Assembly: GCA_965230995.1 (NCBI GenBank)
Contig: OZ246398.1
Location: 73,868 to 137,867, forward strand
Direction: 5' to 3'
From: an uncultured Candidatus Saccharibacteria bacterium
GTDB taxonomy: Bacteria > Patescibacteriota > Minisyncoccia > Phycocordibacterales > G965230995
Length of the DNA: 64,000 nt
Below the pieces are notes generated by a model. The model worked only from the letters and a program-made list of their open reading frames with translations. It had not been told where the DNA came from and ran no database searches. Within the stretch, counting starts at the first letter, position 1, and every line of letters begins with the position of its first letter. Below are positions 14,311 to 56,488 of this stretch, piece by piece. The position numbers and the translations under genes are program-made.

Positions 14311-14408
14311 TATTGATAAATAATATAACGTCTTAATAAAAAATAAAACCCGTTTAAAATCCCATTGCCTATTGCGAGGGTAAACAACAATCACTAATAC
14401 TTAACCAA

Positions 14409-14454
14409 TTGACACCACTAAATAAATACATAGTCTTTAAATCAGGCCAAGGAG
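14409..14454 (+). promoter_or_regulatory. promoter and RBS of GC-rich island 1 (TTGACA ... AAGGAGG)
   Basis: TTGACA at 14409-14414, AT-rich -10 region, AAGGAGG 14448-14454 followed by GTG 14461. Confidence 0.4.
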
Positions 14455-14460
14455 GAATTG

Positions 14461-14750
14461 TGACATTAGTACAAGTCCTTGCGGTTCAGAAACAGAGCGA
14501 ACAACCGCTAACCAAAGGAATGCTCCCAGGGATCATTGCAGAATGCCACAGGTGGCCATGGCCCGGCAGAACATCTGTTCGGTATACCGCCACAAACGGC
14601 AACACCATTGTGGCAACCATGCTACAGATTAACGGTAGCCACACTGTCACGAGCATGCAAAATGCCGTACAGCTTATGCTCACCAGGGGAGAATCTGAAT
14701 TCGTAACCAAAGAAAACGGGGGGCTCATTCTATGGACTGTCGTTCCGTAA
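14461..14750 (+). CDS. hypothetical protein encoded in GC-rich island 1
   Basis: 96 aa from GTG after AAGGAGG (the ORF track uses a longer frame from 14409). Codon usage and G+C are clearly higher than neighbours. No recognisable motifs. Confidence 0.35.
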
Positions 14751-14777
14751 TGCCGGAAGACCTCCGACAGAACGGAG

Positions 14778-14804
14778 AAGGCGCGCCACGGGCGCGCCTT
14801 TCCT
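14778..14804 (+). terminator. rho-independent terminator (GGCGCGCC palindrome hairpin) ending island 1
   Basis: AAGGCGCGCC-ACG-GGCGCGCCUU then UCCUCAUUU. Confidence 0.6.
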
Positions 14805-14811
14805 CATTTAT

Positions 14812-15939
14812 CTACACCCCTTTCTCCAAAATCAAATCCCATTTTGTTCTGAGAATTCTCTCTACTGATTCGTTTATTCTATCCTCACTAATCTCACCAT
14901 TATCTACCGCCTCTAATATCCTTTCGTATATTTGTTTTTGAATGTCTCTCGAATATGTACTGATTATAATATCAACACCGGATAGAATTGCTTTCAGACT
15001 ATTTTCGGCAATGTTTCCACCTACAGAAACCATTTCCATATCATCGGAAATGATCACACCCTTAAAACCAAGCTCTCCTCTCAAAATATCAACCAAGAAT
15101 TTTTCTGAAAGCGTAGCCGGTTTATCATCGACAATTGGCACGACAATATGAGCCGTCATAATCGGAACATAAGGATATTTTTCTATTACTTTTTTAAATG
15201 GCAAAATATTATTTTCCAAATCCTCTTTTGAAATTGAAATCGAAACACCTTTTTTGTGTGGATCAAGAGAAATATTTCCATATCCTGGAAAATGTTTTGC
15301 AACTGGAATAACACCCGAAGATTCATATCCTTTTATCATTTCAATTCCAAGCTCTGATATTTTTTCTGGTGTCGTACCAAAAGTCCTTTTGTATAGATAA
15401 GAATTCCTATCGGTTACATAATCCAAAACCGGAGCAAAATTCATATTTACGCCAATAGAAGAAAGCTCCTCCCCTCTTTTCTTTGAAATTTTAAAAGCAT
15501 CCTCTGTATTTTTAATTTCAACCTGTTGTGTTAATTCAGAGAAAAAATTAAAACGAATTACATCTCCCCCTTCTTGATCGGTAGCGATAAATAGAGGAAT
15601 ATTTGCAAAGTTTTGCATTTGAGAAATCAAATCTCGGGACTGACTCTCATCTAAAATATTTCTACCGAGCAAATTAAAACCTCCAACATTATAATCCTTT
15701 ATCATTTCTATAGTATCGGGATCGAGATTTTTTCCTGGAAGACCGATAATGAGCATCTGACCAATCTTTTCTTTTATCGTCATGGATGACAATTTCTTCT
15801 CTATTTCTACCGAAACAGTATCTTCTTTTGTCTCAATATTGTTATTTTCTATGTCGACATTTTTTTCATTTTTTAAATATACAAAAGAAAAAACTAGAGC
15901 AAGGACAATTACGAGGATTACAAAAAGTTTTTTAAACAT
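14812..15939 (-). CDS. glycoside hydrolase family 3 N-terminal domain protein (beta-N-acetylhexosaminidase NagZ-like), membrane anchored
   Basis: 375 aa; N-terminal TM; KHFPGYG motif and GH3 fold order (IATDQEGG, FAPVLD). Confidence 0.65.
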   Translation of the reverse strand: MFKKLFVILVIVLALVFSFVYLKNEKNVDIENNNIETKEDTVSVEIEKKLSSMTIKEKIGQMLIIGLPGKNLDPDTIEMIKDYNVGGFNLLGRNILDESQSRDLISQMQNFANIPLFIATDQEGGDVIRFNFFSELTQQVEIKNTEDAFKISKKRGEELSSIGVNMNFAPVLDYVTDRNSYLYKRTFGTTPEKISELGIEMIKGYESSGVIPVAKHFPGYGNISLDPHKKGVSISISKEDLENNILPFKKVIEKYPYVPIMTAHIVVPIVDDKPATLSEKFLVDILRGELGFKGVIISDDMEMVSVGGNIAENSLKAILSGVDIIISTYSRDIQKQIYERILEAVDNGEISEDRINESVERILRTKWDLILEKGV

Positions 15940-15980
15940 AAAAGAAGTCTATCATGACAATATGCAAGGATTAAAGCTAT

Positions 15981-16009
15981 TTGACTTTATACACAAAGAT
16001 TGTATTATT
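15981..16009 (+). promoter_or_regulatory. sigma70-like promoter, first of three homologous promoters in GC-rich island 2 (TTGACT-N16/17-TATTAT)
   Basis: TTGACTTTATACACAAAGATTGTATTATT; near-identical copy at 16466-16496 and related copy at 16991-17019 (TTTACT-N17-TATAAT). Confidence 0.5.
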
Positions 16010-16048
16010 ATTTTGGCTTAGAGTTCCTAACACAAGCGGAGAAAAGCG

Positions 16049-16396
16049 ATGAGTGAAGTCACTGTAACCCAGCTCGTTAAACATGAGCACTTCCTGAGGG
16101 ACATCGGGTGTCTGAAGGGGTTCCTCAGTCATCTCGGCTGGCATCTTCCGGAAGATGTATTCGTGGTATGCCTACATCTTACATGGAAGGAAATCACCCT
16201 ACTCATGGTCAAGGAAACAATGGGGATCGGAGTTCCACATAAGTGCACAGTGATGGGTACCACCTCTATCACGGCGGAGAACGTTGTCCGCATGATTGAC
16301 TGGACCTTCAGACACCATTACGAACTCATCGTGAGACCTCCGGACAACAAGTTCCAGTTCCGCTTCATTCATCAACTGCAATCCCCTGGCGCCTAG
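16049..16396 (+). CDS. hypothetical protein A of GC-rich island 2
   Basis: 115 aa, GGAG RBS, GC-rich codons, followed by terminator hairpin 16424-16449. Confidence 0.4.
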   Translation: MSEVTVTQLVKHEHFLRDIGCLKGFLSHLGWHLPEDVFVVCLHLTWKEITLLMVKETMGIGVPHKCTVMGTTSITAENVVRMIDWTFRHHYELIVRPPDNKFQFRFIHQLQSPGA

Positions 16397-16537
16397 GAAG
16401 CGCCACCCTACCCACCAAGACAGCCCACCAAGGCGCGTCTGGTGGGTTTGTCATTTATGCAGAACTTTACTTTATGTATAAAGATTGTATTATAATTTTG
16501 GCTTAGAAGTTCTGAACTCACAACCGGAGACCAGGAA

Positions 16538-16900
16538 ATGGCACCCGCCACAACCAAAGATATCCACATTGGACGCGAACAATTGTATGTGTTCTTAAGT
16601 GGAAAGGATGGACACGGTGGTCTAGAGGCGCAATTCGGAGACAACGGAGTAGTCACCCTACACGTTATGCATCGAGGAGAAGGTTCTGCAAAAACCATCA
16701 CGATCCAAGTAACGATGGAGAGACGTGTTGGTTTCCAGGAAGAAAAGCTAGTGAAGGTGATCGAAGAGTTTGACGGAGAGGAAATCAATGGATGGATTTC
16801 CTCCCTGATGAAGGGAAACAACATTCCACTCTTCTTCTTACCACCCAACCGCTTCCACCTGTTCCATTTCAAAATCGATGATATACCCCCCGGCGTCTAG
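16538..16900 (+). CDS. hypothetical protein B of GC-rich island 2
   Basis: 120 aa, own promoter copy and GGAGACC RBS, followed by terminator 16928-16953 homologous to the first. Confidence 0.4.
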   Translation: MAPATTKDIHIGREQLYVFLSGKDGHGGLEAQFGDNGVVTLHVMHRGEGSAKTITIQVTMERRVGFQEEKLVKVIEEFDGEEINGWISSLMKGNNIPLFFLPPNRFHLFHFKIDDIPPGV

Positions 16901-17065
16901 GAGACGCCACCCCACCCACCAAGACAGCCCACCGAGGCACGTCTGGTGGGTTTGTCATTTATGGCTAAAATATGTGGCTTTTTTGTACTATTTACTTTTA
17001 AACGCGTTTGTTGTATAATATATGAGAAACAGTACCGTACAACAAACCAATTAGGAGACGCTACC

Positions 17066-17563
17066 ATGCGTTACTTCACCATCGTTCTATTCGCGGTCAC
17101 GATGTTCATCACCGGTAGCGGGTGCATTGCCTACTACCAGATCAACGGAAAGGAAGGAGTCCTCGCCGTTCCACCCCTTGTGGGTACGCCGGTGGTGGTT
17201 GTCGCTTCCTGCGACCGCTGTCACTACCGTCACTGCCGTTGCGAGCAGTATGAATACCGCTGGCAGTGCGAGATCTGCAACCAGTACTTTGGTCGGCTTG
17301 CCGACCAATACTGGGACGGAGGACGTCGCACCTGCCGGTGGTGCCATCATGAAAAGTGGCCCTACCGCGCGTGGCAGTGCACAGTGTGCCATGGTTACTA
17401 CTGGCCAGTGGATGTTCGCAACAACATACACCGTGGCCATAACACTTGCTGGCGGTGTCTCGTGAGAGACAACATGGAGTGCGAGCAAGGCTGTAACGAA
17501 CCAACAACACTGCCCTGTCGCAGGTGGTATCATAGCTATTTCGGACCACCTCCTCCGAAATAG
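17066..17563 (+). CDS. cysteine-rich (about 20 Cys, multiple CxxC) secreted or lipoprotein-like protein of GC-rich island 2
   Basis: Start at internal ATG after AGGAGACG RBS (ORF track starts at 16946). N-terminal TM/lipobox-like FITGSGC; CDRCHYRHCRC, CEIC, CRWC, CTVC, CWRC; terminator 17567-17615. Confidence 0.45.
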   Translation: MRYFTIVLFAVTMFITGSGCIAYYQINGKEGVLAVPPLVGTPVVVVASCDRCHYRHCRCEQYEYRWQCEICNQYFGRLADQYWDGGRRTCRWCHHEKWPYRAWQCTVCHGYYWPVDVRNNIHRGHNTCWRCLVRDNMECEQGCNEPTTLPCRRWYHSYFGPPPPK

Positions 17564-17631
17564 CCCCCCGCCAGAGAGAACCCGCCAGTACACGGCGCCT
17601 CTCTCTGGCGGGTTTTCTTTTGTCTTAAAAT

Positions 17632-18087
17632 CTATTTCTTCTTTAGATTGTTTTCGATAATAGTTTTGTATATATCACCTCTTGTGACAATACCGACTAA
17701 TTTGCCATTTTCATCCATTACGGGCATCCTGTGAATACTTCGTGCGAGCATAATTGCGCCAACTTTCATAATAGGATCATCTGGGGAAACAGAAACGACT
17801 TCACGCGACATAAATCTTTCGATTGGGTTCTTTCGTATTTCTTGTATTTTTGATTCTCTTTTTTCTGGATCAGTATAGCTCTCTGGGTTTTCGTAGAAAC
17901 TTCGGTAATAAGGGAAAAGTACTTTGTATAAATCTTTGTCAGAAATCATACCGATAACATCACCGCTTTCATTAACGACAGGACAACCTTTTATACCGCT
18001 TTTTAACAGAAAAGTGGCCGCGTCTTCATAAGTAGTATCAAAAGGTAGAGTAAGCACTGGCGAATGCATTAATTCTTTTGTTTTCAT
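17632..18087 (-). CDS. CBS-domain pair protein
   Basis: 151 aa; two CBS repeats (VMTRDV.. / GIVTRGDIYK), no fused catalytic domain. Confidence 0.7.
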   Translation of the reverse strand: MKTKELMHSPVLTLPFDTTYEDAATFLLKSGIKGCPVVNESGDVIGMISDKDLYKVLFPYYRSFYENPESYTDPEKRESKIQEIRKNPIERFMSREVVSVSPDDPIMKVGAIMLARSIHRMPVMDENGKLVGIVTRGDIYKTIIENNLKKK

Positions 18088-18185
18088 AATTATATAATAC
18101 CACTTTTAGAGAAAGTAAACATAATCTTGCAGTGTATTAAAAATAGTGCTATATTCTCTGTATTCATAAGCCTAATCACACACAA

Positions 18186-18743
18186 TTGAAACGAGACGAT
18201 CGTATCAGAATAAATGAAAGGATTCGCGCGAGAGAACTTCGCGTAGTTGATGCCGAGGGTAAAATGCTTGGTGTTTTGTCTATTGATGAAGCCTTGCGAA
18301 AATCCAGAGAAGCCGGATTAGACCTCATAGAAATATCTCCAAACGCAGTCCCTCCAGTAGCAAAAATAATGGACTACGGAAAATATCTTTACAGCGAAAA
18401 GAAAAAGGCAAAAGAAGTAAAAGCCAAAGCTCACAGTGTCGAGGTAAAAAATATACAGGTAAAAGTCGGTACCGGAGAAAACGACCTGGCCTTGAAAGCA
18501 AGAAAAGTCACCGAATGGCTATCCGAAGGAAACCGAGTAAAAATCGACTTGTTCCTACCTGGTAGACTCAAATATATGGATGAAAAATTCCTAAAAGAAA
18601 GAATTGAAAGAGTATTAAAGCTCGTCTCTGTTCCCTACAAAATTGCTGATAGTGCTAAAAAAAGCCCTAAAGGTATGACTATTGTGATAGAAAAGGACAA
18701 ATCTCAAAAGGAAAACCCTCAGGAAAAACCTGCTCAAAAATAG
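18186..18743 (+). CDS. infC: translation initiation factor IF-3 (TTG start)
   Basis: INERIRARELRVVDAEG...EALRKSREAGLDLIEISPNAVPPVAKIMDYGKYLY core. Confidence 0.9.
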   Translation: MKRDDRIRINERIRARELRVVDAEGKMLGVLSIDEALRKSREAGLDLIEISPNAVPPVAKIMDYGKYLYSEKKKAKEVKAKAHSVEVKNIQVKVGTGENDLALKARKVTEWLSEGNRVKIDLFLPGRLKYMDEKFLKERIERVLKLVSVPYKIADSAKKSPKGMTIVIEKDKSQKENPQEKPAQK

Positions 18744-18806
18744 CTAGACAAAAAGCCCGATATAGTATAGTATTTTAGCCTATACTATTTTTGGTTTAAT
18801 TATTGT

Positions 18807-19016
18807 ATGAAAACAAACAAGTCATTCACGAAGCGACTCAAAGTCACCAAAAATGGCAAGATCCTAGGCCGAAAACCAGGAAGAAGCCATTACAACGCGA
18901 AAGAAAGTCGCCGAAAGACACAGCTCGGCAAGAAAGGCCTTGTTGAAATAACCCTTGCAAGTAACAAGGTTATATCAAGATTCCTACCGGGAAAATATAT
19001 TGCAAAGAAAAAATAA
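18807..19016 (+). CDS. rpmI: 50S ribosomal protein L35
   Basis: 69 aa basic protein, KRLKVTKNGKIL..RSHYNAKESRRK pattern, infC-rpmI-rplT order. Confidence 0.8.
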   Translation: MKTNKSFTKRLKVTKNGKILGRKPGRSHYNAKESRRKTQLGKKGLVEITLASNKVISRFLPGKYIAKKK

Positions 19017-19025
19017 TACAAATTT

Positions 19026-19373
19026 ATGACACGAGTAAAAGGAGGGGTTAATGCCCTAAAAACAAGACGAAATATCCTAAAGCAGACAAAAGGATACCGA
19101 TTCGGAAGATCAACAAAAGAAGCAGATGCATACCAAGCAATAGTTCACGCTGGGGTCTATTCTTTTGCTCACCGAAGAGACAAAAAGGGAGACTTTAGAA
19201 AGCTTTGGACAGTTCGAATCAATTCTTCATTGGATGATATGGGTTATTCATACAGCAAATTCATTGGAGCTCTAAAAAAGAAAAACATCGAATTAGACCG
19301 AAAAGTACTATCTCAAATAGCGCAAGAAAACTCTGAAGTTTTCAAAAAGATCGCAGAAAAAGCAATGAATTAA
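19026..19373 (+). CDS. rplT: 50S ribosomal protein L20
   Basis: MTRVKGGVNALKTRRNILKQTKGYRFGRS...YSYSKFIGALKK matches L20. Confidence 0.9.
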   Translation: MTRVKGGVNALKTRRNILKQTKGYRFGRSTKEADAYQAIVHAGVYSFAHRRDKKGDFRKLWTVRINSSLDDMGYSYSKFIGALKKKNIELDRKVLSQIAQENSEVFKKIAEKAMN

Positions 19374-19383
19374 TTAAATAAAA

Positions 19384-19409
19384 GCCCCGCGCGAAGCGCG
19401 GGGCTTTTA
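19384..19409. terminator. bidirectional terminator after rplT
   Basis: AAAAGCCCCGCGCGAAGCGCGGGGCUUUU. Confidence 0.75.
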
Positions 19410-19411
19410 TT

Positions 19412-19714
19412 TTATTTAATACTCTCTCTCACTTTTTTGAATTCCTCTATTACTTCCCCCACTGCTCTCTTTGCTGTTTTGTCGAAATCAGGATAGATTT
19501 CTTTTATTTCAGAAAAAACTTTTTCGCCTTCTGTTTCAAACCTACTTTCTAAATCTGATAACATTTTGCTATCAATGTGATTTTTTAGGATATCAAAAAT
19601 TCTGTTATGGATAGCATTCCACACATAGCCAATTACTTCTTTTTGTTCATCTTGTGATAGTCCTGATAAGCCAATATAGGAGACAAGAAAGTCATCCAGA
19701 TTATTTGCGGTCAT
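19412..19714 (-). CDS. hypothetical small protein (start moved to MTANNLDD)
   Basis: ORF track 19412..19738. An upstream 49-aa ORF (19701..19850, minus strand, MEQKIEQLKK...) ends with its stop overlapping this start (ATGACCGCAAATAA), suggesting coupling. Confidence 0.3.
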   Translation of the reverse strand: MTANNLDDFLVSYIGLSGLSQDEQKEVIGYVWNAIHNRIFDILKNHIDSKMLSDLESRFETEGEKVFSEIKEIYPDFDKTAKRAVGEVIEEFKKVRESIK

Positions 19715-19867
19715 ATTCTTTTTCTGCAATATAAGCATTGAGAATTTCGTTTGAAAGCGCCGAGACTAGAGGAGTGTTTGCTTCTTGGTTTTCTACACCA
19801 AGTTCAGCAAATGGAGAGGCTTTTTTTAGTTGTTCAATTTTTTGTTCCATAATGTAATTATTATACT

Positions 19868-21247: not shown

Positions 21248-21248
21248 T

Positions 21249-21641: not shown

Positions 21642-21954
21642 ACATATATTCTACCTTTTTTCTTCCAAACAAAAAACCCTTCGCAAGCGATGGGTTTTTT
21701 GTAGGGTGTCTGGTAATATTGCCCTAGATAAAATTCTAGGTGGGTGCCCTCAGCAGTCATTTCTCTGAAGAAATTAATCCTCATCGATACAAATGCAATT
21801 TGAGCTCCCTTACAATATGTTAACTAGATAATATTCCAGCTCACCCTTCTCTATTATACACCTAAATTTTTGATAGCAAAACTTTTTGCAAATTCAAAAC
21901 AAATTCCGTGGCAAGTAAAGATATATTATTATAAAAAATCCTGTACTATTTATA

Positions 21955-22252
21955 GCGGAGACTCGGTAGGGTCACTTAACTTAGTGGGAAGCAAAGGGTT
22001 ACTGACTTCTCGAGCCGAGCGAGCAACAGTCAAAACTCTTCGCCCACGGAGATAGATTTCTCTGTCTTGGGGGCTTGAGAGGCACTCATTGCGGAGGGTT
22101 TGTTCTATCTCCATCGCCGTCCTTTTTGCTTTATGGGGTAGGAACGCGTGCACAGGGATTCGCACTTGGTTTTCGCTTTTGTCCACAACACCAAGCATCC
22201 CGAACACGCCGACATGGGGAGGCTTACGCGAGTCTCCCCTGTCTTTATATAT
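21955..22252. ncRNA. candidate structured non-coding RNA of unknown class (not RNase P, not tmRNA)
   Basis: ~300-nt non-coding stretch, locally GC-rich relative to flanks, closed by a perfect 9-bp terminal helix (GGAGACUCG 21958.. / CGAGUCUCC ..22250), bracketed by hairpin terminators at 21667-21700 and 22256-22280. Strand undetermined. Confidence 0.3.
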
Positions 22253-22285
22253 ACAAAAACAGGCTTTGGGCCTGTTTCTGAAATT

Positions 22286-22891
22286 TTATTCAAGTATTCC
22301 GTCTAGGTTCACATCGTAGAGAATTTCTTCTTGCACCAATCTGTAATTTACAATTTCCCCTTCTTTAAACCAGAGATTTATTTCACCTTTTGCTTCGTCC
22401 ACTGTACCCGATGCATGAATTAGATTTCTTATTGCTCTACCAGATGTGTCGGCCATTAAATATGAATCAAGAACAAAGTCACCTCTGATAGTACCAACAT
22501 CAGATGATCTTGGTTCTGTACCTCCAGTTATTTTTCTTACTACTTCGACACTGTGCACACCCTGCCAAACCATAGCAATGACAGGCCCACTTGTAAGATA
22601 TTTTTTAAGGACTTCAACGACATTTTTTCCAACTGCAATTGGGTCATTTGATGGCGGTGTTTGTCCTTTCTTTTTGTAGCTTTCTATAGATTTTTCACCG
22701 ACTTTTCTCATCCATTCTGGATCAAGGAGATAATGCTTTTCGATCAAATCCGCTGTGGGCACAATCATTTTCATTGCAACCAGCTTTAGTCCAGCTCTTT
22801 CGTATCTTTTTATTATTTCTCCTACTAGAGTCCTTTGTATTGCATCTGGTTTAATAACGACTAAGGTTCTCTCGTTCTTTAAATTATCCAT
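22286..22891 (-). CDS. ndk: nucleoside diphosphate kinase with ~35-aa internal insertion
   Basis: ERTLVVIKPDAIQRTLVGEIIKRYE...GPVIAMVWQG...GTIRGDF..NLIHASG; insertion DPEWMRKVGEKSIESYKKKGQTPPSND. Confidence 0.85.
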   Translation of the reverse strand: MDNLKNERTLVVIKPDAIQRTLVGEIIKRYERAGLKLVAMKMIVPTADLIEKHYLLDPEWMRKVGEKSIESYKKKGQTPPSNDPIAVGKNVVEVLKKYLTSGPVIAMVWQGVHSVEVVRKITGGTEPRSSDVGTIRGDFVLDSYLMADTSGRAIRNLIHASGTVDEAKGEINLWFKEGEIVNYRLVQEEILYDVNLDGILE

Positions 22892-34823: not shown

Positions 34824-34824
34824 A

Positions 34825-36973: not shown

Positions 36974-37128
36974 TTGATTGCGTTTCGTAAATTAAAATGC
37001 CCCTACATAGAGCTGGGCTACATAGTAGCAAAAAATAAAAATGTGTCAAACGAAAAAACGGTTTTTTATATAAAACAGAAACACCCCACAAGGAGGAGGG
37101 GGTGTCCCTGCCCTTTTGGGGTGTAAAT

Positions 37129-37356
37129 TCACTTTTTGATTTCGAACCCGAAATCGTCTGCGAGTTTGATTACCTCGCTAGAGTCCGGGTTTTCCGCCAG
37201 CATCGCGCCAACTTTCATTGACGCATCCTTGTGGTTTGGGGAACACCCAAACACCTTTCTGAACCGCTTGAGTCGGGAATACCTCCTCGAGCGGGTGAGG
37301 CCGTAAACGGCCTGCATGAGAATCATCCCGGCAATGACAGCCAACACATAAAGCAT
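37129..37356 (-). CDS. small hypothetical protein with N-terminal TM helix, in GC-rich island 3 inserted between rpsS and rplB
   Basis: 75 aa; GC-rich codons; TATAAT promoter on minus strand (~37395-37400) and GAGGT RBS; GC hairpin downstream (~37090-37115). Confidence 0.35.
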   Translation of the reverse strand: MLYVLAVIAGMILMQAVYGLTRSRRYSRLKRFRKVFGCSPNHKDASMKVGAMLAENPDSSEVIKLADDFGFEIKK

Positions 37357-37445
37357 AGTTTACCTCGGGTTTTGGTTTCTGGCTTAGTTTCTCCGCTACA
37401 TATTATAACACACTCATTTTAAAAAAGCAACAGCGCGTAGCACTT

Positions 37446-38099
37446 CTAGTTTTCTAAAATATCTAGAAATTCCAGCTCTTTTTGAATCTTTTTCTCGTAT
37501 TCTTTTAAAAATTCTATGTAATCGACAGCAATTTGTTTTGCCTTTTCGATATGAAAAATAGGCATATAATCACGAATATTTGTCCTTATGTCATCTAAAA
37601 TGCTTTTGGGATCTGCGTATGTTGATTCTGGATTAATGCTGTATAAATAGTTATGTTCATATATGGGTAAATGGGGTGAAAATTGCCCAGATCTTATGAT
37701 TACAGAAGGTGATAGGTTTGCTAATTTATCAGAATCTTGGAGTATTTTTTGGGTCTCTGATTTATGTTCCGGAGAAATATGCGAATGCTCAAGGACTGCA
37801 AAATATATCTCTTGTTTTTCAGATTCAGAAAAATTATCTCCTGTCATTTCAATCATTTCTTTTACTTTTTTTGATACGCTATCACTCGAAACCAGTCTAT
37901 CGATAGAATGAATGAGGCCTGCGACAAAAGCAGTATTTGCAGTTTTTTCGTCACCAGCAATTTTTAGAGCATAGCTCGCAACAGAGATATCATGATCAAA
38001 GCCGTGTCCCCTATTCTTTTTTTCTGAAGTCTTGTGCAAATCTGATATCGCTTCGTATAGATTTTTGTACTTTTCCTTTAATTCTTTAAATGTGGGCAT
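37446..38099 (-). CDS. HD-domain phosphohydrolase-like protein inserted in the S10 operon between rplB and rpsS
   Basis: 217 aa; H..HD motif HGFDHDISVASYALKIA, additional His/Asp downstream. Confidence 0.55.
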   Translation of the reverse strand: MPTFKELKEKYKNLYEAISDLHKTSEKKNRGHGFDHDISVASYALKIAGDEKTANTAFVAGLIHSIDRLVSSDSVSKKVKEMIEMTGDNFSESEKQEIYFAVLEHSHISPEHKSETQKILQDSDKLANLSPSVIIRSGQFSPHLPIYEHNYLYSINPESTYADPKSILDDIRTNIRDYMPIFHIEKAKQIAVDYIEFLKEYEKKIQKELEFLDILEN

Positions 38100-46870: not shown

Positions 46871-46958
46871 CTTTACTTTTACAAAAAATAATATAGGGTT
46901 TTACCCAGAGTCAGACATCCGTCTGACAAAAAAGAACCTCAAACAAAGACTGAAAGCA

Positions 46959-47570
46959 ATGGCCACAAACTGGAGAGTTCAATTCGAGAGACGTCGCGAG
47001 ATATGGGTCCACAACGGAAGCGATCACACACCGCATTTGGTGCTTCCATCCGGGCTTCACTCAGACGGCTTCTTCGATGTCGAGGGAATCAAGAACAACG
47101 ACAGTCAGCTAGCGCTCGCTTCTATTGGTCTTCTGACCAAACTTTCCGGCCACATTGACCTCTGCGAAGCAGGAGGTGTCGTTGGGCACCAACATCTCGC
47201 GGAACCACTATCGAATGACATCACCCGCCGCACGCACGGCAGTGAGAGCCTCTGGGTTTCCCCAATCGGGGAGTCAGACGAGATGTCATTTTGCGAAGAA
47301 GACGCAAAGTCACTTCTAAGGAGAACGGTCATCATCTGTGATTTCGTCGCTAGCGCTGGCCGTATCAAGTCAATGGCAGATGCTGTTCTGAGGGCTGGCG
47401 GGTTAGTACTGCCTTACGCGCTCGTCCTCCTCAACCCCATGGGCTATGCCCGAATCGACGACGACATGCTCGTCATCTCGCTCGTGAACCAGCAGATGAA
47501 CAGATGGGAGCCCCAAGACTGTCCCCTGTGCAAGATGGGGTCGTCAGCCGTCAGCACCATCGACAGTTAA
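46959..47570 (+). CDS. phosphoribosyltransferase-like (OPRTase/PyrE-like type I PRTase fold) protein with C-terminal CxxC, encoded in GC-rich island 4
   Basis: 203 aa; LPSGLHSDGFFDVEGI (PRPP-loop-like), RTVIICDFVASAGRIKSMADAV (PRTase hydrophobic-acidic motif); markedly GC-rich codons; hairpin terminator 47605-47628. Confidence 0.45.
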   Translation: MATNWRVQFERRREIWVHNGSDHTPHLVLPSGLHSDGFFDVEGIKNNDSQLALASIGLLTKLSGHIDLCEAGGVVGHQHLAEPLSNDITRRTHGSESLWVSPIGESDEMSFCEEDAKSLLRRTVIICDFVASAGRIKSMADAVLRAGGLVLPYALVLLNPMGYARIDDDMLVISLVNQQMNRWEPQDCPLCKMGSSAVSTIDS

Positions 47571-47632
47571 CCCCCTCGCCAAAAAAGAAATTGGTGAGAA
47601 CCCGGCTCCGCACACAATGCGGAGCCGAAACT

Positions 47633-48445
47633 TTAAAACTCAATTCTCCCTAATGTAATTGTGGACAAAAAAGGTATCGAGAGACTTTTTAATCTATCAA
47701 TTGTTTCTTTGCTTGGATGTCCGTATTGGTTGTTTTTGCCAGCAGAAATTATTGCAACCTTTGGTTTTACATAATTCAGAAAATCTTTTGAACTCGAAGT
47801 CTTTGAACCGTGATGCCCGAGTTTCAAAACATCACTCTGCAAATCATTTTTGAATTTAGAAATTAATTTTGCCTCTACTTTCTGTGTGGCATCCCCAGTT
47901 AAAAGAAAAGAACCTTTGTTCATTTGAACCCTTGCAACTATCGACCCCTCGTTTCCTTTTTCAACATTTTCTTTTGTAAATGGAAATAATATTTTCAAAA
48001 CTACATTATTACCTAAATCTATCACTTCCCCACTTTTGACTATTTTAACAGGAATATTCTTTGACTTTGCTTTTGATAAAAAATCGCTTGCTGTTTTTGT
48101 TGTGGTCTCCGCCCCATTTATCAAAACCAAACCAATATCATAGGAATCCAAAATATATTCAAATCCTCCAATATGATCCGCGTCAAAATGTGATGCCATA
48201 ATTACATCAATATGTTTATCTCCGTATTTCATCACTTCTCGCAATTCTGGAATAACTTCTTTCCCTCTACCCGAATCAAGCAAAAGCTGATTACCGTTTT
48301 TTGATTCAATTAAAATACTGTCCCCTTGGCCAACATCAAGAAAAACTAGTCTCTCAAAACTAACAGAAAAAGTTAGAGAATATATGAAGATAAAAATAGA
48401 AAAGAAGAAAAAAGACCAAACAGATATGACTAGATATTTCTTCAT
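47633..48445 (-). CDS. ComEC-type metallo-beta-lactamase domain protein (C-terminal half of ComEC as separate ORF with own TM anchor)
   Basis: LDVGQGDSILIE start motif of ComEC MBL domain, HFDADHIGG. Confidence 0.6.
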   Translation of the reverse strand: MKKYLVISVWSFFFFSIFIFIYSLTFSVSFERLVFLDVGQGDSILIESKNGNQLLLDSGRGKEVIPELREVMKYGDKHIDVIMASHFDADHIGGFEYILDSYDIGLVLINGAETTTKTASDFLSKAKSKNIPVKIVKSGEVIDLGNNVVLKILFPFTKENVEKGNEGSIVARVQMNKGSFLLTGDATQKVEAKLISKFKNDLQSDVLKLGHHGSKTSSSKDFLNYVKPKVAIISAGKNNQYGHPSKETIDRLKSLSIPFLSTITLGRIEF

Positions 48446-48516
48446 TCTACAATTTTAGCACCTTTTGTTTATGTGGCACCTTGTTATAATGAATACATAT
48501 AAGATAAAACAAAAAA

Positions 48517-51277: not shown

Positions 51278-51298
51278 TTTAAAATTGTAACAGCTAAA

Positions 51299-52984
51299 TT
51301 AATTTTTGAGTATATCCACCAAACGCAATCGCAATTCAATTTTCCCTCTGAAAATAGCTTTTTCCATATGAGCAATGATATTTACAATAATACCCGGCTT
51401 CAGTTCCACAGAGAAAGAATCCGGCCCCGCAAAAAATGCAATTGCTTCGGCTTTCTTTCCACTACCGTCCTGTAGTGTAAGTGAAAGATGATTTTTTTGT
51501 TTTCCAAAAAGCTTCATTCCTATTATTTCTACATTAGGAAATAGAAACAACGGCTTTCTGTTGTCTATCCCAAAAGGACTCATCATTTCAATCGTCCTGT
51601 AATTTTCTATATTTATATCCGCCAAAGACAATTTTCCGTCTAGAACTATTTCTTCAGAAATTTCTTCACGTTCAATGGTTCTGAATACTTCACATAATTT
51701 TTCTTCCATATGATGTACCGCTTCTTCAAATACTGAAAAACCTCCGGCCATTTTATGCCCGCCAAATTGTGAAAATACATCCGGAAGAGATTTCATTAGA
51801 TGGACCAAATCTGTTACTCCATCAGATCTGCAAGATCCTTTTATCATATGCTTACCCTCTCTACCCCACAAAAATACAGGGCATTTATATTCTTCTGAAA
51901 CACTGTTTGCAACCAAACCAACAAGCGAAGGTCGCCAATCTGGATTACCCATCACAATGACTTCGGGAACATCTCCCCTTGCTTTCATTCTTTTTTTTAC
52001 TTCTTTAACTATCGAAGCCACCACCCCTTTTCTTTCGTTGTTTATCTCCTCGAGTTTTCTTGCGTAAGCATCACCCTCGGCTTCATCTTTTGTTGAAAGC
52101 AAGAAAAATGCATCGGCGGGGTCACCCATTCTCGAAGCTGCATTTATTCTCGGAGCAATCATAAAACCAATATCGTCTTCAGTAATAAACCTCTGATCAA
52201 TATTTAATTTCTGTACTAGTTTTCTAATTCCCGGTCGTGGGCTTTTCCTCAAAACAAGCAAACCATATTTACCCAATATCCTATTTTCATCAACCAAAGG
52301 CACCATATCAGACAATGTTGCAATTCCAACCATATCAAGAAGCCATTTTTCTTGACCTGGTTTCAAACCAAAATCTCTAGATTGTAAAATTGCCTGCACA
52401 AGTTTCCATCCTACCCCGCTCCCACAGAGACCATCAAAAGGATAATTACAATCGTGACGTTTGGGATCAACAACAGCATATGCGGGCGGAAGTTTTTCTG
52501 GTTGTTCGTGATGATCAGTGACAATCACATCAATTCCTTTTTCGTTTGCATATGCAATTTCATCGTAATCAGCAATACCGCAATCAAGGGTGACGAGTAA
52601 ATCCACGCCATCGCGAGCAAAAGAATCTATCGCTTCACTATTTAATCCAAAACCCTCGTCGTGTCTATGGGGAATATAATTTTTTGCATTTGGATAACCA
52701 ATCAAATCAAAAAAATCCTTCATCATCACTCCAGCAGGAATTCCATCTGCATCGTAATCGCTATAAATTAAAATATTCTCACCATTATCAATTGCGCGCA
52801 GTATTCTCTCGACTGCTCTGTCCATATCACGCATTAAAAAAGGATCATGAAAGCCATCGTCAAATGACGGATTCAAAAAATCATCCGGATCTTCTATCTC
52901 CCTATTTTTTAGCAACTGGGCAAGCAAAAAATTATCTACCTGCTCCACCGCGTCTGCCAGGCGGTATCTTTTTCTCATAGACAT
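51299..52984 (-). CDS. recJ: single-stranded-DNA-specific exonuclease RecJ
   Basis: DHH motifs (DYDADG, IVTDHH), DHHA1 region, 561 aa. Confidence 0.85.
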   Translation of the reverse strand: MSMRKRYRLADAVEQVDNFLLAQLLKNREIEDPDDFLNPSFDDGFHDPFLMRDMDRAVERILRAIDNGENILIYSDYDADGIPAGVMMKDFFDLIGYPNAKNYIPHRHDEGFGLNSEAIDSFARDGVDLLVTLDCGIADYDEIAYANEKGIDVIVTDHHEQPEKLPPAYAVVDPKRHDCNYPFDGLCGSGVGWKLVQAILQSRDFGLKPGQEKWLLDMVGIATLSDMVPLVDENRILGKYGLLVLRKSPRPGIRKLVQKLNIDQRFITEDDIGFMIAPRINAASRMGDPADAFFLLSTKDEAEGDAYARKLEEINNERKGVVASIVKEVKKRMKARGDVPEVIVMGNPDWRPSLVGLVANSVSEEYKCPVFLWGREGKHMIKGSCRSDGVTDLVHLMKSLPDVFSQFGGHKMAGGFSVFEEAVHHMEEKLCEVFRTIEREEISEEIVLDGKLSLADINIENYRTIEMMSPFGIDNRKPLFLFPNVEIIGMKLFGKQKNHLSLTLQDGSGKKAEAIAFFAGPDSFSVELKPGIIVNIIAHMEKAIFRGKIELRLRLVDILKN

Positions 52985-53007
52985 ATGATAACATATAAAA
53001 ATAACTT

Positions 53008-53376
53008 TTGAACAAAAATATGGATTGTGTATTTTGCAAAATAGTAGCTGGAGAAATCCCTTGTCATAAAATCTACGAGGATGATAATTTTATTGCTTTT
53101 CTCGATATAAACCCTGTCGCACCAGGACACACACAGGTCATACCTAAAAAACATTACCGCTGGGTTTGGAATGTTCCAAACGTTGGTGAATATTTCGAAG
53201 TGGCAAGAAAAATCGCAATAGCACAAGGCAAAGCTTTTAACACAGATTTCATTCTTTCAAAAACAATCGGCAACGAAGTCCCCCACGCCCATATCTGGGT
53301 CTTTCCAAATGACACGGTTACAGGTGACAAAAAAGATTTTTCTGGCAACTCCCAAAAAATATTAGAGAATATGTAG
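53008..53376 (+). CDS. HIT family hydrolase
   Basis: CVFCKI..., histidine triad [10 protein letters not shown]. Confidence 0.8.
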
Positions 53377-53406
53377 ACAGGCATTATAAATGATATATAC
53401 GAAAAA

Positions 53407-54594
53407 ATGAAAGCTGAATCTCTCAAATCAAGTTCAGATAACAAAAAAGAGCCTGAATTTTTCGAAGACCCAGCGGTATTTAATTGGAAAGACAGTCCTT
53501 CGATTGGTGATGCCGGACTATCAGAAACAGAAATATCAATGATAAGAAATGATCTAACACCAGAGATTGCAGAGAAATTACTCCAAAAATATGATTCCGC
53601 GATAGCACAACATAAAGAATTTGTATCATATATGATTAAAGACTTCGGTCTGCAACTTGGGCAAGATTGGCTTTTAAAAAGTGGTGCATCTAGTGCAAGA
53701 TCTATGATTCTACGCATTGTATCGAGGATAAAAAAAGAAGGCTATACAAAAGAAACAGAGAGAGAAATTGAATCCATAGATGACAGAACACTTCTTATGC
53801 TTAATATAGACAAACTCTTATCAAAATTTTCCTCAAAATATACCCCCGGAAAACAGGTCGAAACCAGTAGCGAGGCATTACATACAGATATTTTTCCAGC
53901 ATCAGATCTAACAGAAAAACAATGGGAAGAAATCTTAAGGATATGCAAAGATAATTATACAGATGATAAAATATTATTGACTTATGTAACTGAAGCCCTA
54001 AAAAGGCTACGAGAAGATGCTCCGAGACTTTCAAAGACCCGTTTTCACTTAGTAAACAGTTTTGATTTGCCAATCGCTTTTTTAAGAGTAGAAGAAAGAT
54101 CCCCGGACACGGTATTTGTTGGAACATTAAATTCCAACCGCTTATATAATGGATATAATGTTGGAATTAAACTATATGAAAATGCTATAAATGAACTAGT
54201 AAAAGAAAAAGTTGTGCTTGCCGAGGCCGACCCCACTTCAGCTATTATCCTAAAATACAGTAAATCCGGTGCGTATTTCTATGACACAAAAGAAATTTTG
54301 GACAACAACGGAAATTCTCGGACACTAATATCACTCATATGGAGAAATAGACCAGAAAGAACTAGAGAATTAACAGCGGAAGAATACTCAGACGAGTACT
54401 TAAATGAAATCAAGTCAGAAGGAGAGATATTTTCCGAGAGCTGTGAAAAAAGGGAACTCCCAACGAGACTAGTAGAATTAATAAAAGAAGGAAAAGTAAT
54501 AATATATGTCTACAAAAATTCTGGTAAATTCGAAATACTTTATCAAACATTAACACCAGAACTTAAACAAAAACTACTTCAAAAGAGAGTCTAG
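53407..54594 (+). CDS. hypothetical protein
   Basis: 395 aa ORF, no recognisable motifs. Confidence 0.35.
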   Translation: MKAESLKSSSDNKKEPEFFEDPAVFNWKDSPSIGDAGLSETEISMIRNDLTPEIAEKLLQKYDSAIAQHKEFVSYMIKDFGLQLGQDWLLKSGASSARSMILRIVSRIKKEGYTKETEREIESIDDRTLLMLNIDKLLSKFSSKYTPGKQVETSSEALHTDIFPASDLTEKQWEEILRICKDNYTDDKILLTYVTEALKRLREDAPRLSKTRFHLVNSFDLPIAFLRVEERSPDTVFVGTLNSNRLYNGYNVGIKLYENAINELVKEKVVLAEADPTSAIILKYSKSGAYFYDTKEILDNNGNSRTLISLIWRNRPERTRELTAEEYSDEYLNEIKSEGEIFSESCEKRELPTRLVELIKEGKVIIYVYKNSGKFEILYQTLTPELKQKLLQKRV

Positions 54595-55341
54595 GTCCCA
54601 TATAAGATCAAAAATTGCCGTTATAGATTCCTTGATTGATATAGAATCAATTACAACACCGACAAAAACGCCTTTTCTAAAGGTTATAAATGCAACCTTG
54701 TTTTTAAATGAATATATAACTGTATCAAGCAATTTAGTAGTTTTTAATTTTACAGTTTTAAAAGTAACCCATTCATCCTTTAAAGAACTAACGAGATCTT
54801 CGTTTTCCTTTGTTTCTGGAATAATAATTCTCTTCTTAACACCTTTGTTTCTTCTAATCTTTAAGTATTCTTCATTAATCTTTGCTATTTCCCCACTAAC
54901 CGATCGCAAGTCTACAAATTGGTAAACTATTTCATCCTCACTAACATCTAGAGTTTCATCTAAAATCTTCCATATTCCTTTTTTCCCCTCAAAGAAACGT
55001 ACATTTGGCTTTCCAGAAATCAGATTAAAATCTGAAATCATTTCTCCCATTATTGCTTCCAAAGAAGATTTGGCTGTGCTTATTTTTCTAGCCCTATCAT
55101 CTACAATTTCTTCTATATGTTTTGGGTTTTTTGCAATGTATTTTAATATTTTTGAGTCTTTTACGTTCTCTATTAGATTAAGAACTAAAAGTTGCTTAAT
55201 GTTTTTGTAAACCAAAGTCCTCTCTATCCCTGTAAGGAGAGATATCCTAGCAACCTGAATAGGTCCGTTTTTTAGAACTGCTTCATATATACGGCTCTGG
55301 TCATGTGTTAAGCCTGCGTCAACTAAATATTTTTCATACAT
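54574..55341 (-). CDS. TrmB-like transcriptional regulator (winged HTH + C-terminal domain)
   Basis: N-terminal LTHDQSRIYEAVLKNGPIQVARISLLTGIERTLVYKNIKQL; C-terminal NKVAFI motif shared with three paralogs downstream. Confidence 0.5.
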   Translation of the reverse strand: MYEKYLVDAGLTHDQSRIYEAVLKNGPIQVARISLLTGIERTLVYKNIKQLLVLNLIENVKDSKILKYIAKNPKHIEEIVDDRARKISTAKSSLEAIMGEMISDFNLISGKPNVRFFEGKKGIWKILDETLDVSEDEIVYQFVDLRSVSGEIAKINEEYLKIRRNKGVKKRIIIPETKENEDLVSSLKDEWVTFKTVKLKTTKLLDTVIYSFKNKVAFITFRKGVFVGVVIDSISIKESITAIFDLIWDLDSLLK

Positions 55342-55478
55342 ACAATTTTTTATATGATTTATATACTATAATATTTTTATCTGTTATGCAAATTTCACAA
55401 AAATATTTGAAAATTTAAATATAAAAATGGCTTTTTTTATAGTTTTTTCAAGATTTAGTGATATTTAGTTATGTTTAT

Positions 55479-55513
55479 TTGACATAATTAAACGCCTAGT
55501 GTAAAGTCATGCA
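55479..55513 (+). promoter_or_regulatory. strong sigma70-like promoter of GC-rich island 5 (TTGACA-N17-TG-TAAAGT)
   Basis: TTGACATAATTAAACGCCTAGTGTAAAGT. Confidence 0.5.
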
Positions 55514-55812
55514 CAGAAAAGCCCGACAGCAATCGGGGTGAAGCACCAAAAACATTAACTGGCGGTCTAGCGTCCAAAGCAAGGACGTAGAGTGCACAAA
55601 GCCTAAGGGAAGCAAGGCAGTGCACCCCATTAGACGGGATATGGGCGTAAGTGACGCCCAGCCTACAAGTGAACTGACAGGCACTTGTTCAGCTTCCCAT
55701 GTGAAGAACTCTTTCTGTTGTGGACGGTCCAATCCCGTTGAAACAGAAGAGACGTATTGGTAGGAGAATTACCAATGTCAAAAAAATCTCCGGGCGGTTT
55801 GCTGACTGCCCG

Positions 55813-55861
55813 TCTGTCGCAGGATGGTTCCTGCCTGATGAGCCAATAATGGCGAAACAGA
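55813..55861 (+). ncRNA. hammerhead ribozyme copy 1, type III topology (closed stems I and II, open stem III), predicted cleavage after C55818
   Basis: UCUGU-C^-GCAGG-AUGGUU-CCUGC-CUGAUGA-GCCA-AUAA-UGGC-GAAAC-AGA; all catalytic-core nucleotides present. Confidence 0.8.
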
Positions 55862-56125
55862 ATATTTACCGTCGAGGACAACTCTTAACTGCTCGGGCGC
55901 ACGTGCACGATCGTAGGTCGGACGTGAACCACGCACATAAATAGAGACAACAAGGTATTGTGCTGAAAAGGCTTCGGGTAAGTGCCAGCTGTTTGCTGAG
56001 TAACTAACGGACACCCTTAGTAGGCAACCTCGCGGAGGATAGAATCTCTACTATCCCGTTGGTGTGACCATCGACAATAGTCACAAAAATTTTTGGAGAT
56101 GGTTTGCAAACACCTTCCATCTCCA

Positions 56126-56176
56126 TTCTGTCGCAGGATGGTTCCTGCCTGATGAGCCAATAATGGCGAAACAGAA
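56126..56176 (+). ncRNA. hammerhead ribozyme copy 2, type III, predicted cleavage after C56132
   Basis: 52 nt identical to copy 1 (UCUGUCGCAGGAUGGUUCCUGCCUGAUGAGCCAAUAAUGGCGAAACAGAA); stem III UUCUGU/ACAGAA. Confidence 0.8.
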
Positions 56177-56207
56177 ACAATTCCTTTGTAACTATTGGGA
56201 GGTTTGT

Positions 56208-56417
56208 ATGTTTGATTACCGAAGAGCTGAGCGTGACGCTGACATCGAAGAGCTGTACCGGGAAGACGAGCACCTCATGGTTAGTATCACAAAGCTCGAA
56301 ACCCTCAAACCCACCCCAAAAATCAAAGAAAGAATAAGTAAAATAAAGAGAAAACGTGCAGTGATACAATCACTGCTGAGGGAGGCCAAGGAAGACAGAT
56401 ACTTCCACGGCCTGTAG
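56208..56417 (+). CDS. small hypothetical protein (69 aa) downstream of hammerhead 2
   Basis: GGGAGG RBS 7 nt before ATG; charged helical MFDYRRAERDADIEELYREDEHL...; hairpin + T-run terminator ~56420-56455. The ORF-track 56064 start reads through the ribozyme and was rejected. Confidence 0.35.
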   Translation: MFDYRRAERDADIEELYREDEHLMVSITKLETLKPTPKIKERISKIKRKRAVIQSLLREAKEDRYFHGL

Positions 56418-56488
56418 CCCTCAAACCACCCGCAGGACTTAGGTCCGGGGTGTTTTTGTATTTGTGCATTATCAATTTAACCTATATT

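Follow-up and report, generated by a model that had tools for sequence, protein, structure and literature searches.

An open question about genomes of the candidate phyla radiation (CPR), which are tiny and streamlined, is how they acquire and retain accessory functions. It is raised in compact form by the stretch analysed here, 64,000 nt of contig OZ246398.1 (hereafter the window; the parent NCBI contig is 742,714 bp long), from a deep-branching and thinly sampled Patescibacteria (CPR) lineage. Five short GC-rich segments, islands 1 to 5 (I1 to I5), lie in it among AT-rich backbone genes. An earlier note, made by eye, had described each segment as a self-contained unit of promoter, small open reading frame (ORF) and terminator, and had proposed repeated acquisition of foreign cassettes, or tiny mobile or satellite elements. 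The list of five units had to be revised: segment 2 was composed of three cassettes (I2a, I2b and I2c), and segment 5 of a putative ribozyme-processed RNA unit and a 69-aa ORF. The seven island ORFs form a class distinct from the backbone, and related genomes carry other members of it in the same slots. On balance we think it probable that the islands are moron-like autonomous cassettes from an unsampled pool of about 50-55% G+C that uses Shine-Dalgarno (SD) sites, that they occupy permissive gaps and turn over fast, and that a retained subset is kept by selection or exchange.

As shown by the G+C profile in 400-nt bins, the backbone remained at 0.30-0.40 and sharp rises occurred at 14.4-14.8, 16.0-17.6, 46.8-47.6 and 55.6-56.4 kb. 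G+C was 0.499 for 14400-14810, 0.502 for 15975-17625, 0.472 for 37040-37420, 0.527 for 46880-47640 and 0.481 for 55480-56460, against a window mean of 0.377. None of the five segments fell below the 99th percentile of non-island windows of equal length, and three of the five exceeded the maximum. Segment 3 gave the weakest signal and was not visible in the 400-nt bins. A 120-nt scan recovered the five segments. It also picked up genes for tRNA, tmRNA and RNase P RNA, as well as a pair of regions absent from the earlier list, 6295-7014 and 21932-22287. Known RNA genes were rejected as the cause of the high G+C, as Rfam searches at gathering and permissive thresholds returned only the tmRNA, two tRNAs, RNase P and two hammerheads, with no match in islands 1-4 or the 21.9-kb unit. 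Strand or replication skew was also rejected: AT-rich backbone genes adjoin the islands on both strands.

The contrast extended to codon usage. G+C at third codon positions (GC3) was 0.53-0.67 in the seven island ORFs and 0.23-0.34 in 27 backbone genes, and the island ORFs shared a regime of C-ending codons (AAC 0.90, TTC 0.85, ATC 0.60, ACC 0.48). The relative synonymous codon usage of the window islands correlated with that of the islands in related genomes (r = 0.61) and not with that of the backbone (r = -0.11 and -0.47).

SD sites were scored as the predicted pairing energy with the anti-SD sequence, from which the anti-SD of the host's own 16S may differ. Six of the seven island ORFs paired at -6.6 to -11.2 kcal/mol, against a backbone median of 0.0 (n = 51); I4 was the exception (-1.1 kcal/mol). 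With a generous control, in which the best SD over in-frame starts within the first 40 codons was taken, the backbone median was -2.9 (p = 0.0015). Plain A/T-rich leaders without SD preceded EF-Tu, EF-G, S12, S7, S19, L2, L20, RecJ and SOD, as seen for instance upstream of 42407 (EF-Tu), 44815 (EF-G), 45779 (S12) and 38980 (L2). In the relatives, GGAG, AGGAG or GGAGG was carried by all the GC-rich ORFs examined (~14) and by none of the backbone genes. Initiation in the core genes of this lineage therefore appears to be SD-independent, and the island features are absent from the highly expressed native genes. What the earlier note had estimated by eye, namely higher G+C, GC-rich codons and strong SD sites, was in this way borne out by computation, with I4 as the exception for SD.

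Three independent foreign marks, G+C with GC3, codon regime and SD use, coincide on the same units. Because SD sites and a single codon regime coincide on the islands, their genes are a coherent and distinct gene class and not mere GC-rich DNA. In Bacteroidota, core genes are SD-less and a small minority carry strong SD sites; those SD-led genes are native and regulatory. In contrast to the Bacteroidota exceptions, the SD-led genes here coincide with foreign composition and with turnover at slots. The contrast also offers a handle on translation initiation in an SD-less bacterium.

Conserved units and turnover at fixed slots

Six related genomes formed the comparison set. RecJ as the anchor gave relatives at 85, 74, 71 and 68% identity, from which identity fell directly to about 57% in Parcubacteria/Paceibacteria. 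With GH3 (GTDB representatives, best 41%) or M50 (JGI metagenomes, best 58%) as the anchor, all genomes reached were distant and compositionally different; for GH3 the nearest species representatives were Dojkabacteria or metagenome-assembled genomes (MAGs) labelled 'Saccharibacteria', at about 40% identity. The right-hand neighbour of I5, a member of a paralog array of TrmB and solute-binding proteins, was unusable as an anchor.

The slot between the MBL and L28 genes, which holds I4 in the window, was empty in L182 (51 nt including the bidirectional terminator) and contained a 58-aa SD-led ORF and a methyltransferase in L174. The RecJ/RNaseH slot was empty in the window (21 nt) and was filled in the relatives by four different GC-rich, SD-led ORFs, of 169 aa in L172, 201 aa in L175, 89 aa and Cys-rich in L174, and 77 aa with a predicted membrane location in L182. 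In the BP1 slot, convergent with an orthologous solute-binding gene (66%), the window had the hammerhead unit described below and L172 an unrelated GC-rich 145-aa membrane gene. L172, the closest relative, also encoded a predicted PurC-PurE fusion (8369-9859, + strand) with G+C 0.56 and GC3 0.64 against 0.39 for the backbone, which shows, as far as gene annotation goes, that genes of ordinary metabolism can also belong to this compositional class. Because the same slots were empty or differently filled among the six relatives, this comparison indicates that the cassettes turn over: at a given slot they are gained, lost and replaced.

A part of the class was older. Two homologs of the I2c protein, P0007 and P0008, were syntenic, upstream of CBS-IF3-L35-L20, and had GC3 of 0.62 and 0.73 in AT-rich genomes (~0.25-0.35). 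A third candidate, P0009 (2,374 aa), was rejected as spurious, being a Cys-free repeat adhesin. An I2a homolog (28-29% identity, E about 1e-10) was located just upstream of I2c in L086, and a different GC-rich 113-aa ORF occupied the I2a position in L085. Promoters (TTGACTTT...TAnTAT), SD-start regions and CCCCGCC...GGCGGGG-T terminators were conserved in the I2 relatives. Between these genomes, backbone proteins were 76-90% identical, I2c 36-51% and I2a about 30%. Fourfold degenerate sites were at or near saturation in backbone genes and in I2c (0.31 observed vs 0.27 expected), with only 11-29 sites per pair available for the island genes. G+C at these sites (GC4) was 0.62-0.74 in I2c and 0.1-0.4 in the backbone. 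Because I2a and I2c are GC-rich despite saturated fourfold sites, they are not recent un-ameliorated imports, and their composition must be maintained or re-imported and is not the residue of a recent transfer.

The proposal of repeated foreign acquisition accordingly stood in part: gain, loss and replacement at slots and the three foreign marks agree with it, and I2a and I2c do not fit recent import. Syntenic conservation across the lineage, which speaks against acquisition, was found for these two units.

Anatomy of the units and the hammerhead pair

The predicted layout of promoter, SD and terminator recurred across units in all genomes compared (I4 is without a clear SD). A promoter scanner placed sigma70-like sites at the expected position for I2a, I2b, I2c and I5 (4/7); the promoters of I1, I3 and I4 were read by eye only, and promoter-like hits were not enriched in this AT-rich DNA. 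The terminator rule of the scanner was satisfied by I1 alone (1/7), and the other terminators, read by eye, were GC hairpins followed by T-tracts whose loops exceeded that rule. Own promoters and hairpin terminators, claimed for every unit beforehand, were in this sense recovered by scanner for some units and by eye for the rest. Coding potential was assessed with a codon model trained solely on island genes with homolog support, and six frames were compared. For I1, I2b, I3 and I5 the proposed frame outscored the other five (z = 3.3-4.6). This frame test, the Cys pattern and lipobox of I2c and the homolog of I2a together argue that the island ORFs are real genes.

Island 1 (14409-14811, + strand) comprised a GTG-start ORF of 96 aa (14460-14750), an ORFan, with a TTGACA -35 element at 14409, the SD AAGGAGG at 14449-14456 and an 11-bp GC hairpin terminator at 14777-14801 followed by a T-tract. 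Its G+C was 0.499, its GC3 0.54, its SD energy -11.2 kcal/mol and its frame test z = 3.4.

The three cassettes of segment 2, all on the + strand, were flanked by a GH3 gene and a CBS-domain gene. Island 2a (15981-16458) had the promoter TTGACT-16-TATTAT at 15981-16008, an SD of GGAG, an ORF of 115 aa (16049-16396; GC3 0.63) and a terminator module at 16383-16459. Island 2b (16466-16962) had its promoter at 16466-16493, an SD of GGAG and an ORF of 120 aa (16538-16900; frame test z = 4.6). The promoter modules of I2a and I2b were 88% identical and their 77-nt 3' modules (16887-16963 in I2b) 91% identical, forming the repeat families D8 and D18. The pair is therefore a tandem duplication in which the coding parts have diverged past recognition. 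Shared promoter and terminator modules were confined to this pair, and no protein similarity linked the other islands to each other. Island 2c (16991-17624) had the promoter TTTACT-17-TATAAT (16991-17019), an SD of AGGAG, an ORF of 165 aa (17066-17563) and a long-loop terminator (17567-17624). Its product was a predicted lipoprotein with a conserved lipobox (G19-C20) and, in the alignment, about 12 invariant Cys in CxxC pairs.

Island 3 (37072-37410, - strand) interrupted the S10 ribosomal operon, with the HD gene/rplB on one side and rpsS on the other. Its ORF (37356-37129, 75 aa) encoded an N-terminal transmembrane helix followed by a basic stretch, and was preceded by the extended -10 element TGTTATAAT (37402-37410) and an SD of GAGG and followed by a terminator hairpin (37124-37072). 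GC3 was 0.67, SD energy -7.2 kcal/mol and frame test z = 4.0. Directly downstream of the terminator, a strong sigma70-like promoter on the - strand (37022-37049, TTGACA-16-TACTAT with a TG extension, 10/12 matches) would be well placed to restart rpsS and the remaining operon. The HD-domain gene itself (37446-38099, - strand) sits between rplB and rpsS in this operon.

Island 4 (46872-47632, + strand) was an insertion of ~760 bp between the bidirectional terminator of L28 (46837-46871) and the stop codon of the MBL gene (47633). Insertion inside ribosomal operons, noticed in the earlier note, was thereby confirmed for I3 and, beside rpmB, for I4. I4 had no clear SD, an ORF of 203 aa (46959-47570), a hairpin in the 5' untranslated region (46910-46927) and a 3' hairpin (47603-47627). 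Its product resembled a divergent PyrE-like phosphoribosyltransferase (PRTase) with an altered phosphoribosyl pyrophosphate (PRPP) loop, CDFVASAG in place of EDTISTGG and EDVVTRGG in homologs; an intact loop has an acidic pair and then T/S-G-G. It scored 24.1 bits against TIGR01367 (cutoff 150.25) and 13.6 against PF00156 (cutoff 26.3; E = 0.04). Membership of the PRTase fold family is likely on this evidence and enzyme activity doubtful.

The region 21932-22287 (+ strand), missed in the earlier list, was a sixth GC-rich unit of ~300 nt with G+C 0.486; the DNA upstream of it was AT-rich, and its terminator lay at 22216-22248. The codon-model test found no coding frame at 21.96-22.24 kb, and Rfam gave no family for it. 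A GC-rich counterpart, weakly conserved in sequence, was present at the same place in L085 (5887-6270). The unit is probably an unclassified non-coding RNA.

Island 5 differed from the other islands in its non-coding part. Its promoter (TTGACA-17-TAAAGT, 55479-55507, + strand) was followed by a GC-rich non-coding leader of ~300 nt (promoter and leader together 55479-55810). In the ~700 nt after the promoter no convincing ORF was found, and neither the leader nor the unit between the ribozymes had a coding frame; the leader matched no Rfam family. Two type III hammerheads followed on the + strand, copy 1 at 55811-55863 (RF00008, 43.1 bits, E = 7.6e-8) with predicted cleavage after C55818, and copy 2 at 56125-56177 (47.7 bits, E = 4e-9) with predicted cleavage after C56132. 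These E values apply to the 1.1-kb region; for the whole window they were 4.4e-6 and 2.3e-7. In both copies model positions 1-54 were aligned, the core CUGAUGA...GAAA and the GUC triplet were complete, and stems I and II were closed with stem III open. Both scores were just under the RF00008 gathering threshold of 48.5 bits because of the outer stem III pairs. The copies were 100% identical over 50 nt (direct repeat D16), on the same strand and 314 nt apart. The predicted cleavage sites bounded a non-coding, structured unit of 314 nt (55819-56132, + strand). Against shuffled controls, the fold z was -3.4 for the leader and -2.95 for the 314-nt unit. The coding part (56196-56465, + strand) consisted of the SD GGGAGG-N5-ATG, an ORF for a charged ORFan of 69 aa (56208-56417; SD -10.9 kcal/mol, frame test z = 3.3), which starts 31 nt past hammerhead copy 2, and a terminator (56426-56465).

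As the copies lie in the genome, stem III has 4 Watson-Crick pairs in one and 5 in the other; it would have 6 (AUUCUG/CAGAAU) with the ends of the 314-nt unit joined. This pairing is compatible with descent from a tandem or circular template and does not prove it. Cleavage of a primary transcript of ~950 nt at both hammerheads would yield three products: a leader RNA, a 314-nt RNA and an mRNA for the 69-aa protein. The mRNA would begin with a 5'-OH and be capped by two hairpins, stems I and II. The 314-nt RNA, with 5'-OH and 2',3'-cyclic phosphate ends, could be excised and might circularise.

Hammerheads of the same build were present in five viral contigs of IMG/VR (L177-L181), directly upstream of an SD and small ORFs. 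L177 contained two on the same strand, 486 nt apart, each preceded by a stop-codon hairpin and followed by the SD that serves a small ORF. Prokaryotic hammerheads have been described as clustered beside small non-conserved ORFs and associated with phages (PMC6155905). Because the IMG/VR contigs and the published prokaryotic hammerheads match this arrangement, mRNA processing is the economical reading of the pair. The I5 ribozymes resemble the published prokaryotic and phage ones in being canonical type III, close together, on one strand and directly followed by an SD with its small ORFan; they differ in their CPR chromosome, their housekeeping neighbours, the non-coding segment between the ribozymes and the complete identity of the copies over 50 nt (PMC6155905).

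The islands of the relatives contained no ribozymes, and the hammerhead unit was absent from all the relatives sampled. Hammerhead-like cores with closed stems I and II were seen elsewhere, at ~5694 (+ strand) of L016 (Dojkabacteria MAG AnMBR.bin475) and at ~16092 of L164, and hammerheads may be commoner in CPR genomes than the literature indicates. A literature search returned no paper combining hammerhead ribozymes with CPR. The pair supplies a chromosomal CPR example for the biology of bacterial hammerheads beside small ORFans.

Searches of all island proteins against Pfam, PHROGs, PADLOC and NCBIfam gave nothing beyond the weak PRTase/PyrE signals of I4; I1, I2a, I2b, I2c, I3 and I5 matched no curated, phage or defence family. 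The claim that no host-like homologue exists agreed with these family searches and with the protein and phage searches given below. AlphaFold2 models of I2a (pLDDT 60) and I2b (pLDDT 37), compared with PDB and BFVD by Foldseek, had no match with E < 0.05 or a TM-score above 0.35. The cargo consists mostly of small ORFans. It ranges from predicted membrane peptides and small, beta-rich proteins of the cytosol to a Cys-rich lipoprotein of zinc-ribbon-like type and a degenerate PRTase related to PyrE.

Origin of the islands

If the islands are imported cassettes, their source would be a mobile or viral reservoir not yet sampled, or another bacterium, with about 50-55% G+C and SD-dependent translation. 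The cassettes would enter through recombination, illegitimate or homology-facilitated, where a compact genome has one of its few tolerant gaps, such as convergent gene ends and places beside terminators. ComEC-dependent DNA uptake, which is encoded within the window, offers a possible route. The cassettes would then be gained, lost and replaced fast relative to backbone divergence. I2a and I2c would have been retained since before the genomes diverged, with their G+C, C-ending codons and SD sites held by selection or by exchange with the pool, and I5 would be a ribozyme-bearing version of the cassette, as in phage genomes.

Such a unit has a model in the morons of phage genomes, which combine deviant GC with their own promoter and terminator (Hendrix and colleagues; reviewed in PMC3594210). 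Like morons, the islands are putatively independent units between two genes of a syntenic backbone, with differing GC and small cargo of no assigned function, and they are extra units relative to related genomes. Unlike morons, they lie in a cellular chromosome (the S10 operon and the regions of rpmB and recJ) and have no phage genes around them, their neighbours being rpsS, rplB, rpmB, rpsL, recJ, infC, GH3 and solute-binding genes. The SD difference from the backbone is also outside the moron concept.

Transfer of single genes and islands is common in Patescibacteria and includes metabolic patches (PMC12455944). The nucleotide-metabolism genes of the present class, the PyrE-like I4 and the PurC-PurE fusion of L172, resemble those transfers. 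The islands differ from them as single genes of 0.3-0.8 kb, mostly donorless ORFans, with different cargo in the same slots and with the oldest members un-ameliorated. The I2a-I2b-I2c array recalls integron cassettes in its short single-ORF units of one orientation, its structured 3' element of ~77 nt and its variable cargo at a fixed locus. However, a promoter-like site belongs to each unit, where integron cassettes usually have none, the islands are spread across many loci, and the 77-nt module is a stop-codon hairpin plus an intrinsic terminator (two hairpins and a T-tract) and not an attC. Neither IntI nor attI was seen, in a window of which not every ORF was screened for integrases. Classical genomic islands are set apart by their multi-gene size, against 0.3-0.8 kb for the units here, and by an integrase or transposase and flanking repeats, none of which was seen here among the ORFs screened and the repeats mapped.

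Several observations weigh against import. The first is that no donor was found. For I4, two distant PRTase homologs only were detected among 5.8 billion proteins, and for I2c the search of 1.8 billion representatives returned P0007 (52%) and P0008 (39%), both from sister genomes only. Six protein scans of IMG/VR and four tblastn searches of GenBank phages found no island relatives; the single viral contig that matched I4 encoded a 24%-identical PRTase, which is uninformative. Second, the I4 junction, with L182 as the empty-site reference, had no att-type repeat or target-site duplication. Third, I2a and I2c are vertically inherited with their promoters and are yet un-ameliorated, which plain foreign DNA would not predict and which calls for an added assumption of selection or re-import, and the few fourfold sites behind that result weaken it. 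Fourth, SD sites would be unexpected in phages whose host does without them. Finally, the promoter calls and most of the terminator calls are at consensus level or by eye.

The strongest of the alternatives considered, which we still regard as unlikely, is a native, lineage-specific class of small-protein and RNA genes whose GC-rich, SD-led transcripts are shaped by selection on RNA. GC-rich structured 5' ends may be unfit for an AU-rich SD-independent route, the genes may form a regulated sub-translatome, or their mRNAs may be very stable; differences between genomes would then come from rapid divergence together with duplication and loss. Three lineages have I2a and I2c in synteny; the promoters and SD sites of these genes are conserved and their GC4 is 0.62-0.74 despite saturation, and a single codon regime runs across all the genomes. 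The step in G+C matches the transcribed region and covers non-coding RNA (the I5 leader, and 21932-22287 with its counterpart in L085). Local tandem duplication accounts for I2a/I2b, and no donor was found in 15 billion proteins. The native class thus explains non-amelioration better than imported cassettes do, and it explains turnover and ordinary metabolic cargo worse. Unrelated genes fill the same slot in different genomes, one site is cleanly empty, and the metabolic genes of ordinary families (PurC-PurE in L172, the PyrE-like I4) resemble imports. Native genes that are highly expressed are also without these features, and we know of no mechanism that gives high GC3 gene by gene. The non-amelioration of the oldest units poses a mechanistic question, how composition is kept up gene by gene.

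Imported cassettes remain the preferred reading over a third possibility, which we consider improbable: that the islands are remnants or cargo of mobile agents, either a decayed prophage or satellite or, for I5, an integrated, longer-than-unit copy of a hammerhead circular-RNA replicon (retrozyme- or viroid-like, 314 + 50 nt). The two identical type III hammerheads on the same strand, 314 nt apart, with a stem III fully paired only if circular, are of the kind it predicts; eukaryotic retrozymes and hammerhead circular RNAs likewise have two same-strand type III copies that would release a circularisable unit of a few hundred nt (PMC6155905). Hammerheads of the same build in viral contigs and the moron-like unit structure (PMC3594210) are in keeping with it, and the absence of the hammerhead unit from the sampled relatives suggests recent arrival. 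Retrozymes, however, have direct repeats of ~350 bp, PBS/PPT (primer-binding site and polypurine tract), target-site duplications and a dependence on retrotransposon reverse transcriptase (PMC6155905). In I5 the direct repeat is the ribozyme itself, 50 nt, with no longer or LTR-like (long terminal repeat) repeats, PBS/PPT or target-site duplication. No integrase, reverse transcriptase or phage genes adjoin any island (not every window ORF was screened for integrases), there are no PHROG matches, and the flanks are ribosomal and housekeeping genes. Among the repeat families of the whole window none brackets an island and no terminal repeats were found; no extrachromosomal contig carrying island genes was seen. 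Hammerheads that serve in phages as intergenic mRNA-processing sites explain the pair without a circular replicon. The suggestion of tiny mobile or satellite elements found no support, as neither integrase, transposase, terminal inverted repeat, target-site duplication nor extrachromosomal copy came to light.

In a more speculative proposal, as improbable as the mobile agent, one chromosome would hold two expression 'dialects'. The core would be AT-rich and SD-less; beside it would stand mini-genes with high G+C, SD sites and C-ending codons, along with ribozyme-processed RNAs, as a class that is maintained and can be exchanged, and that is neither foreign DNA in decay nor a set of ordinary native genes. 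The second dialect could be a sub-translatome switched by anti-SD availability, a pool shuttled among related cells by a vector that has escaped recognition, or, in what is presumed to be an episymbiont, a set of genes for expression in a partner or host cell; these options share that low probability jointly.

A chimeric assembly, or contaminant reads of a GC-richer organism fused into the contig, can practically be dismissed: abrupt compositional steps are typical of chimeras, but the islands are short with the same backbone on both sides, they recur in three independent Logan assemblies, each from a different run, and the same kind of unit occurs in related genomes from other studies. The exact I4 and I2b proteins were encoded in those three assemblies in identical contexts, and one of them (L001) agreed with the window without mismatch across 8,885 bp, I4 included. 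Because three independent assemblies reproduce the contexts, misassembly, a check the earlier note had called for, is excluded as the source of the islands.

The clade is an unusually clean system for the question of accessory functions, since its accessory genes are recognisable by G+C, codon regime and SD use against an SD-less core. With few slots and differences between close relatives, rates of gain and loss, source and selective value become measurable.

Other features of the window

The region 6295-7014 (- strand, G+C 0.48), the second one missing from the earlier list, contained tRNA-Ile(UAU) at 6966-6893 followed by two perfect tandem units of 157 nt. Each unit ended in the same 3' half of the tRNA T-arm and acceptor (GGTTCGAGTCCTGGCACGCGCAC), and a third, diverged half was present at ~6331-6310. 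ARAGORN and Rfam called the first tRNA only. The 157-nt repeats could be tRNA-like RNAs or att-type duplications.

A class A RNase P RNA at 60524-60841 (+ strand) scored 99.3 bits against a gathering threshold of 100 and was missed by the default Rfam scan; it accounts for the rise in G+C at 60.4-60.8 kb. Both this gene and I5 are embedded in an array at 54574-63951, in which pairs of a TrmB-family regulator and a periplasmic solute-binding protein are repeated at least 4 times. The repeats at 60347-60458 and 62766-62877 were 81% identical.

The tmRNA at 11671-12056 (+ strand) encoded an unusually long tag peptide, ADNSAATPSPYFGTKDFAFALA. The gene at 12253-14394 (- strand) encoded a 713-aa HEAT-repeat protein with many internal repeats of 31 aa (93 nt; LIKQALESxDPxVQxIGA...), and this gene was the source of the largest direct-repeat families of the window.

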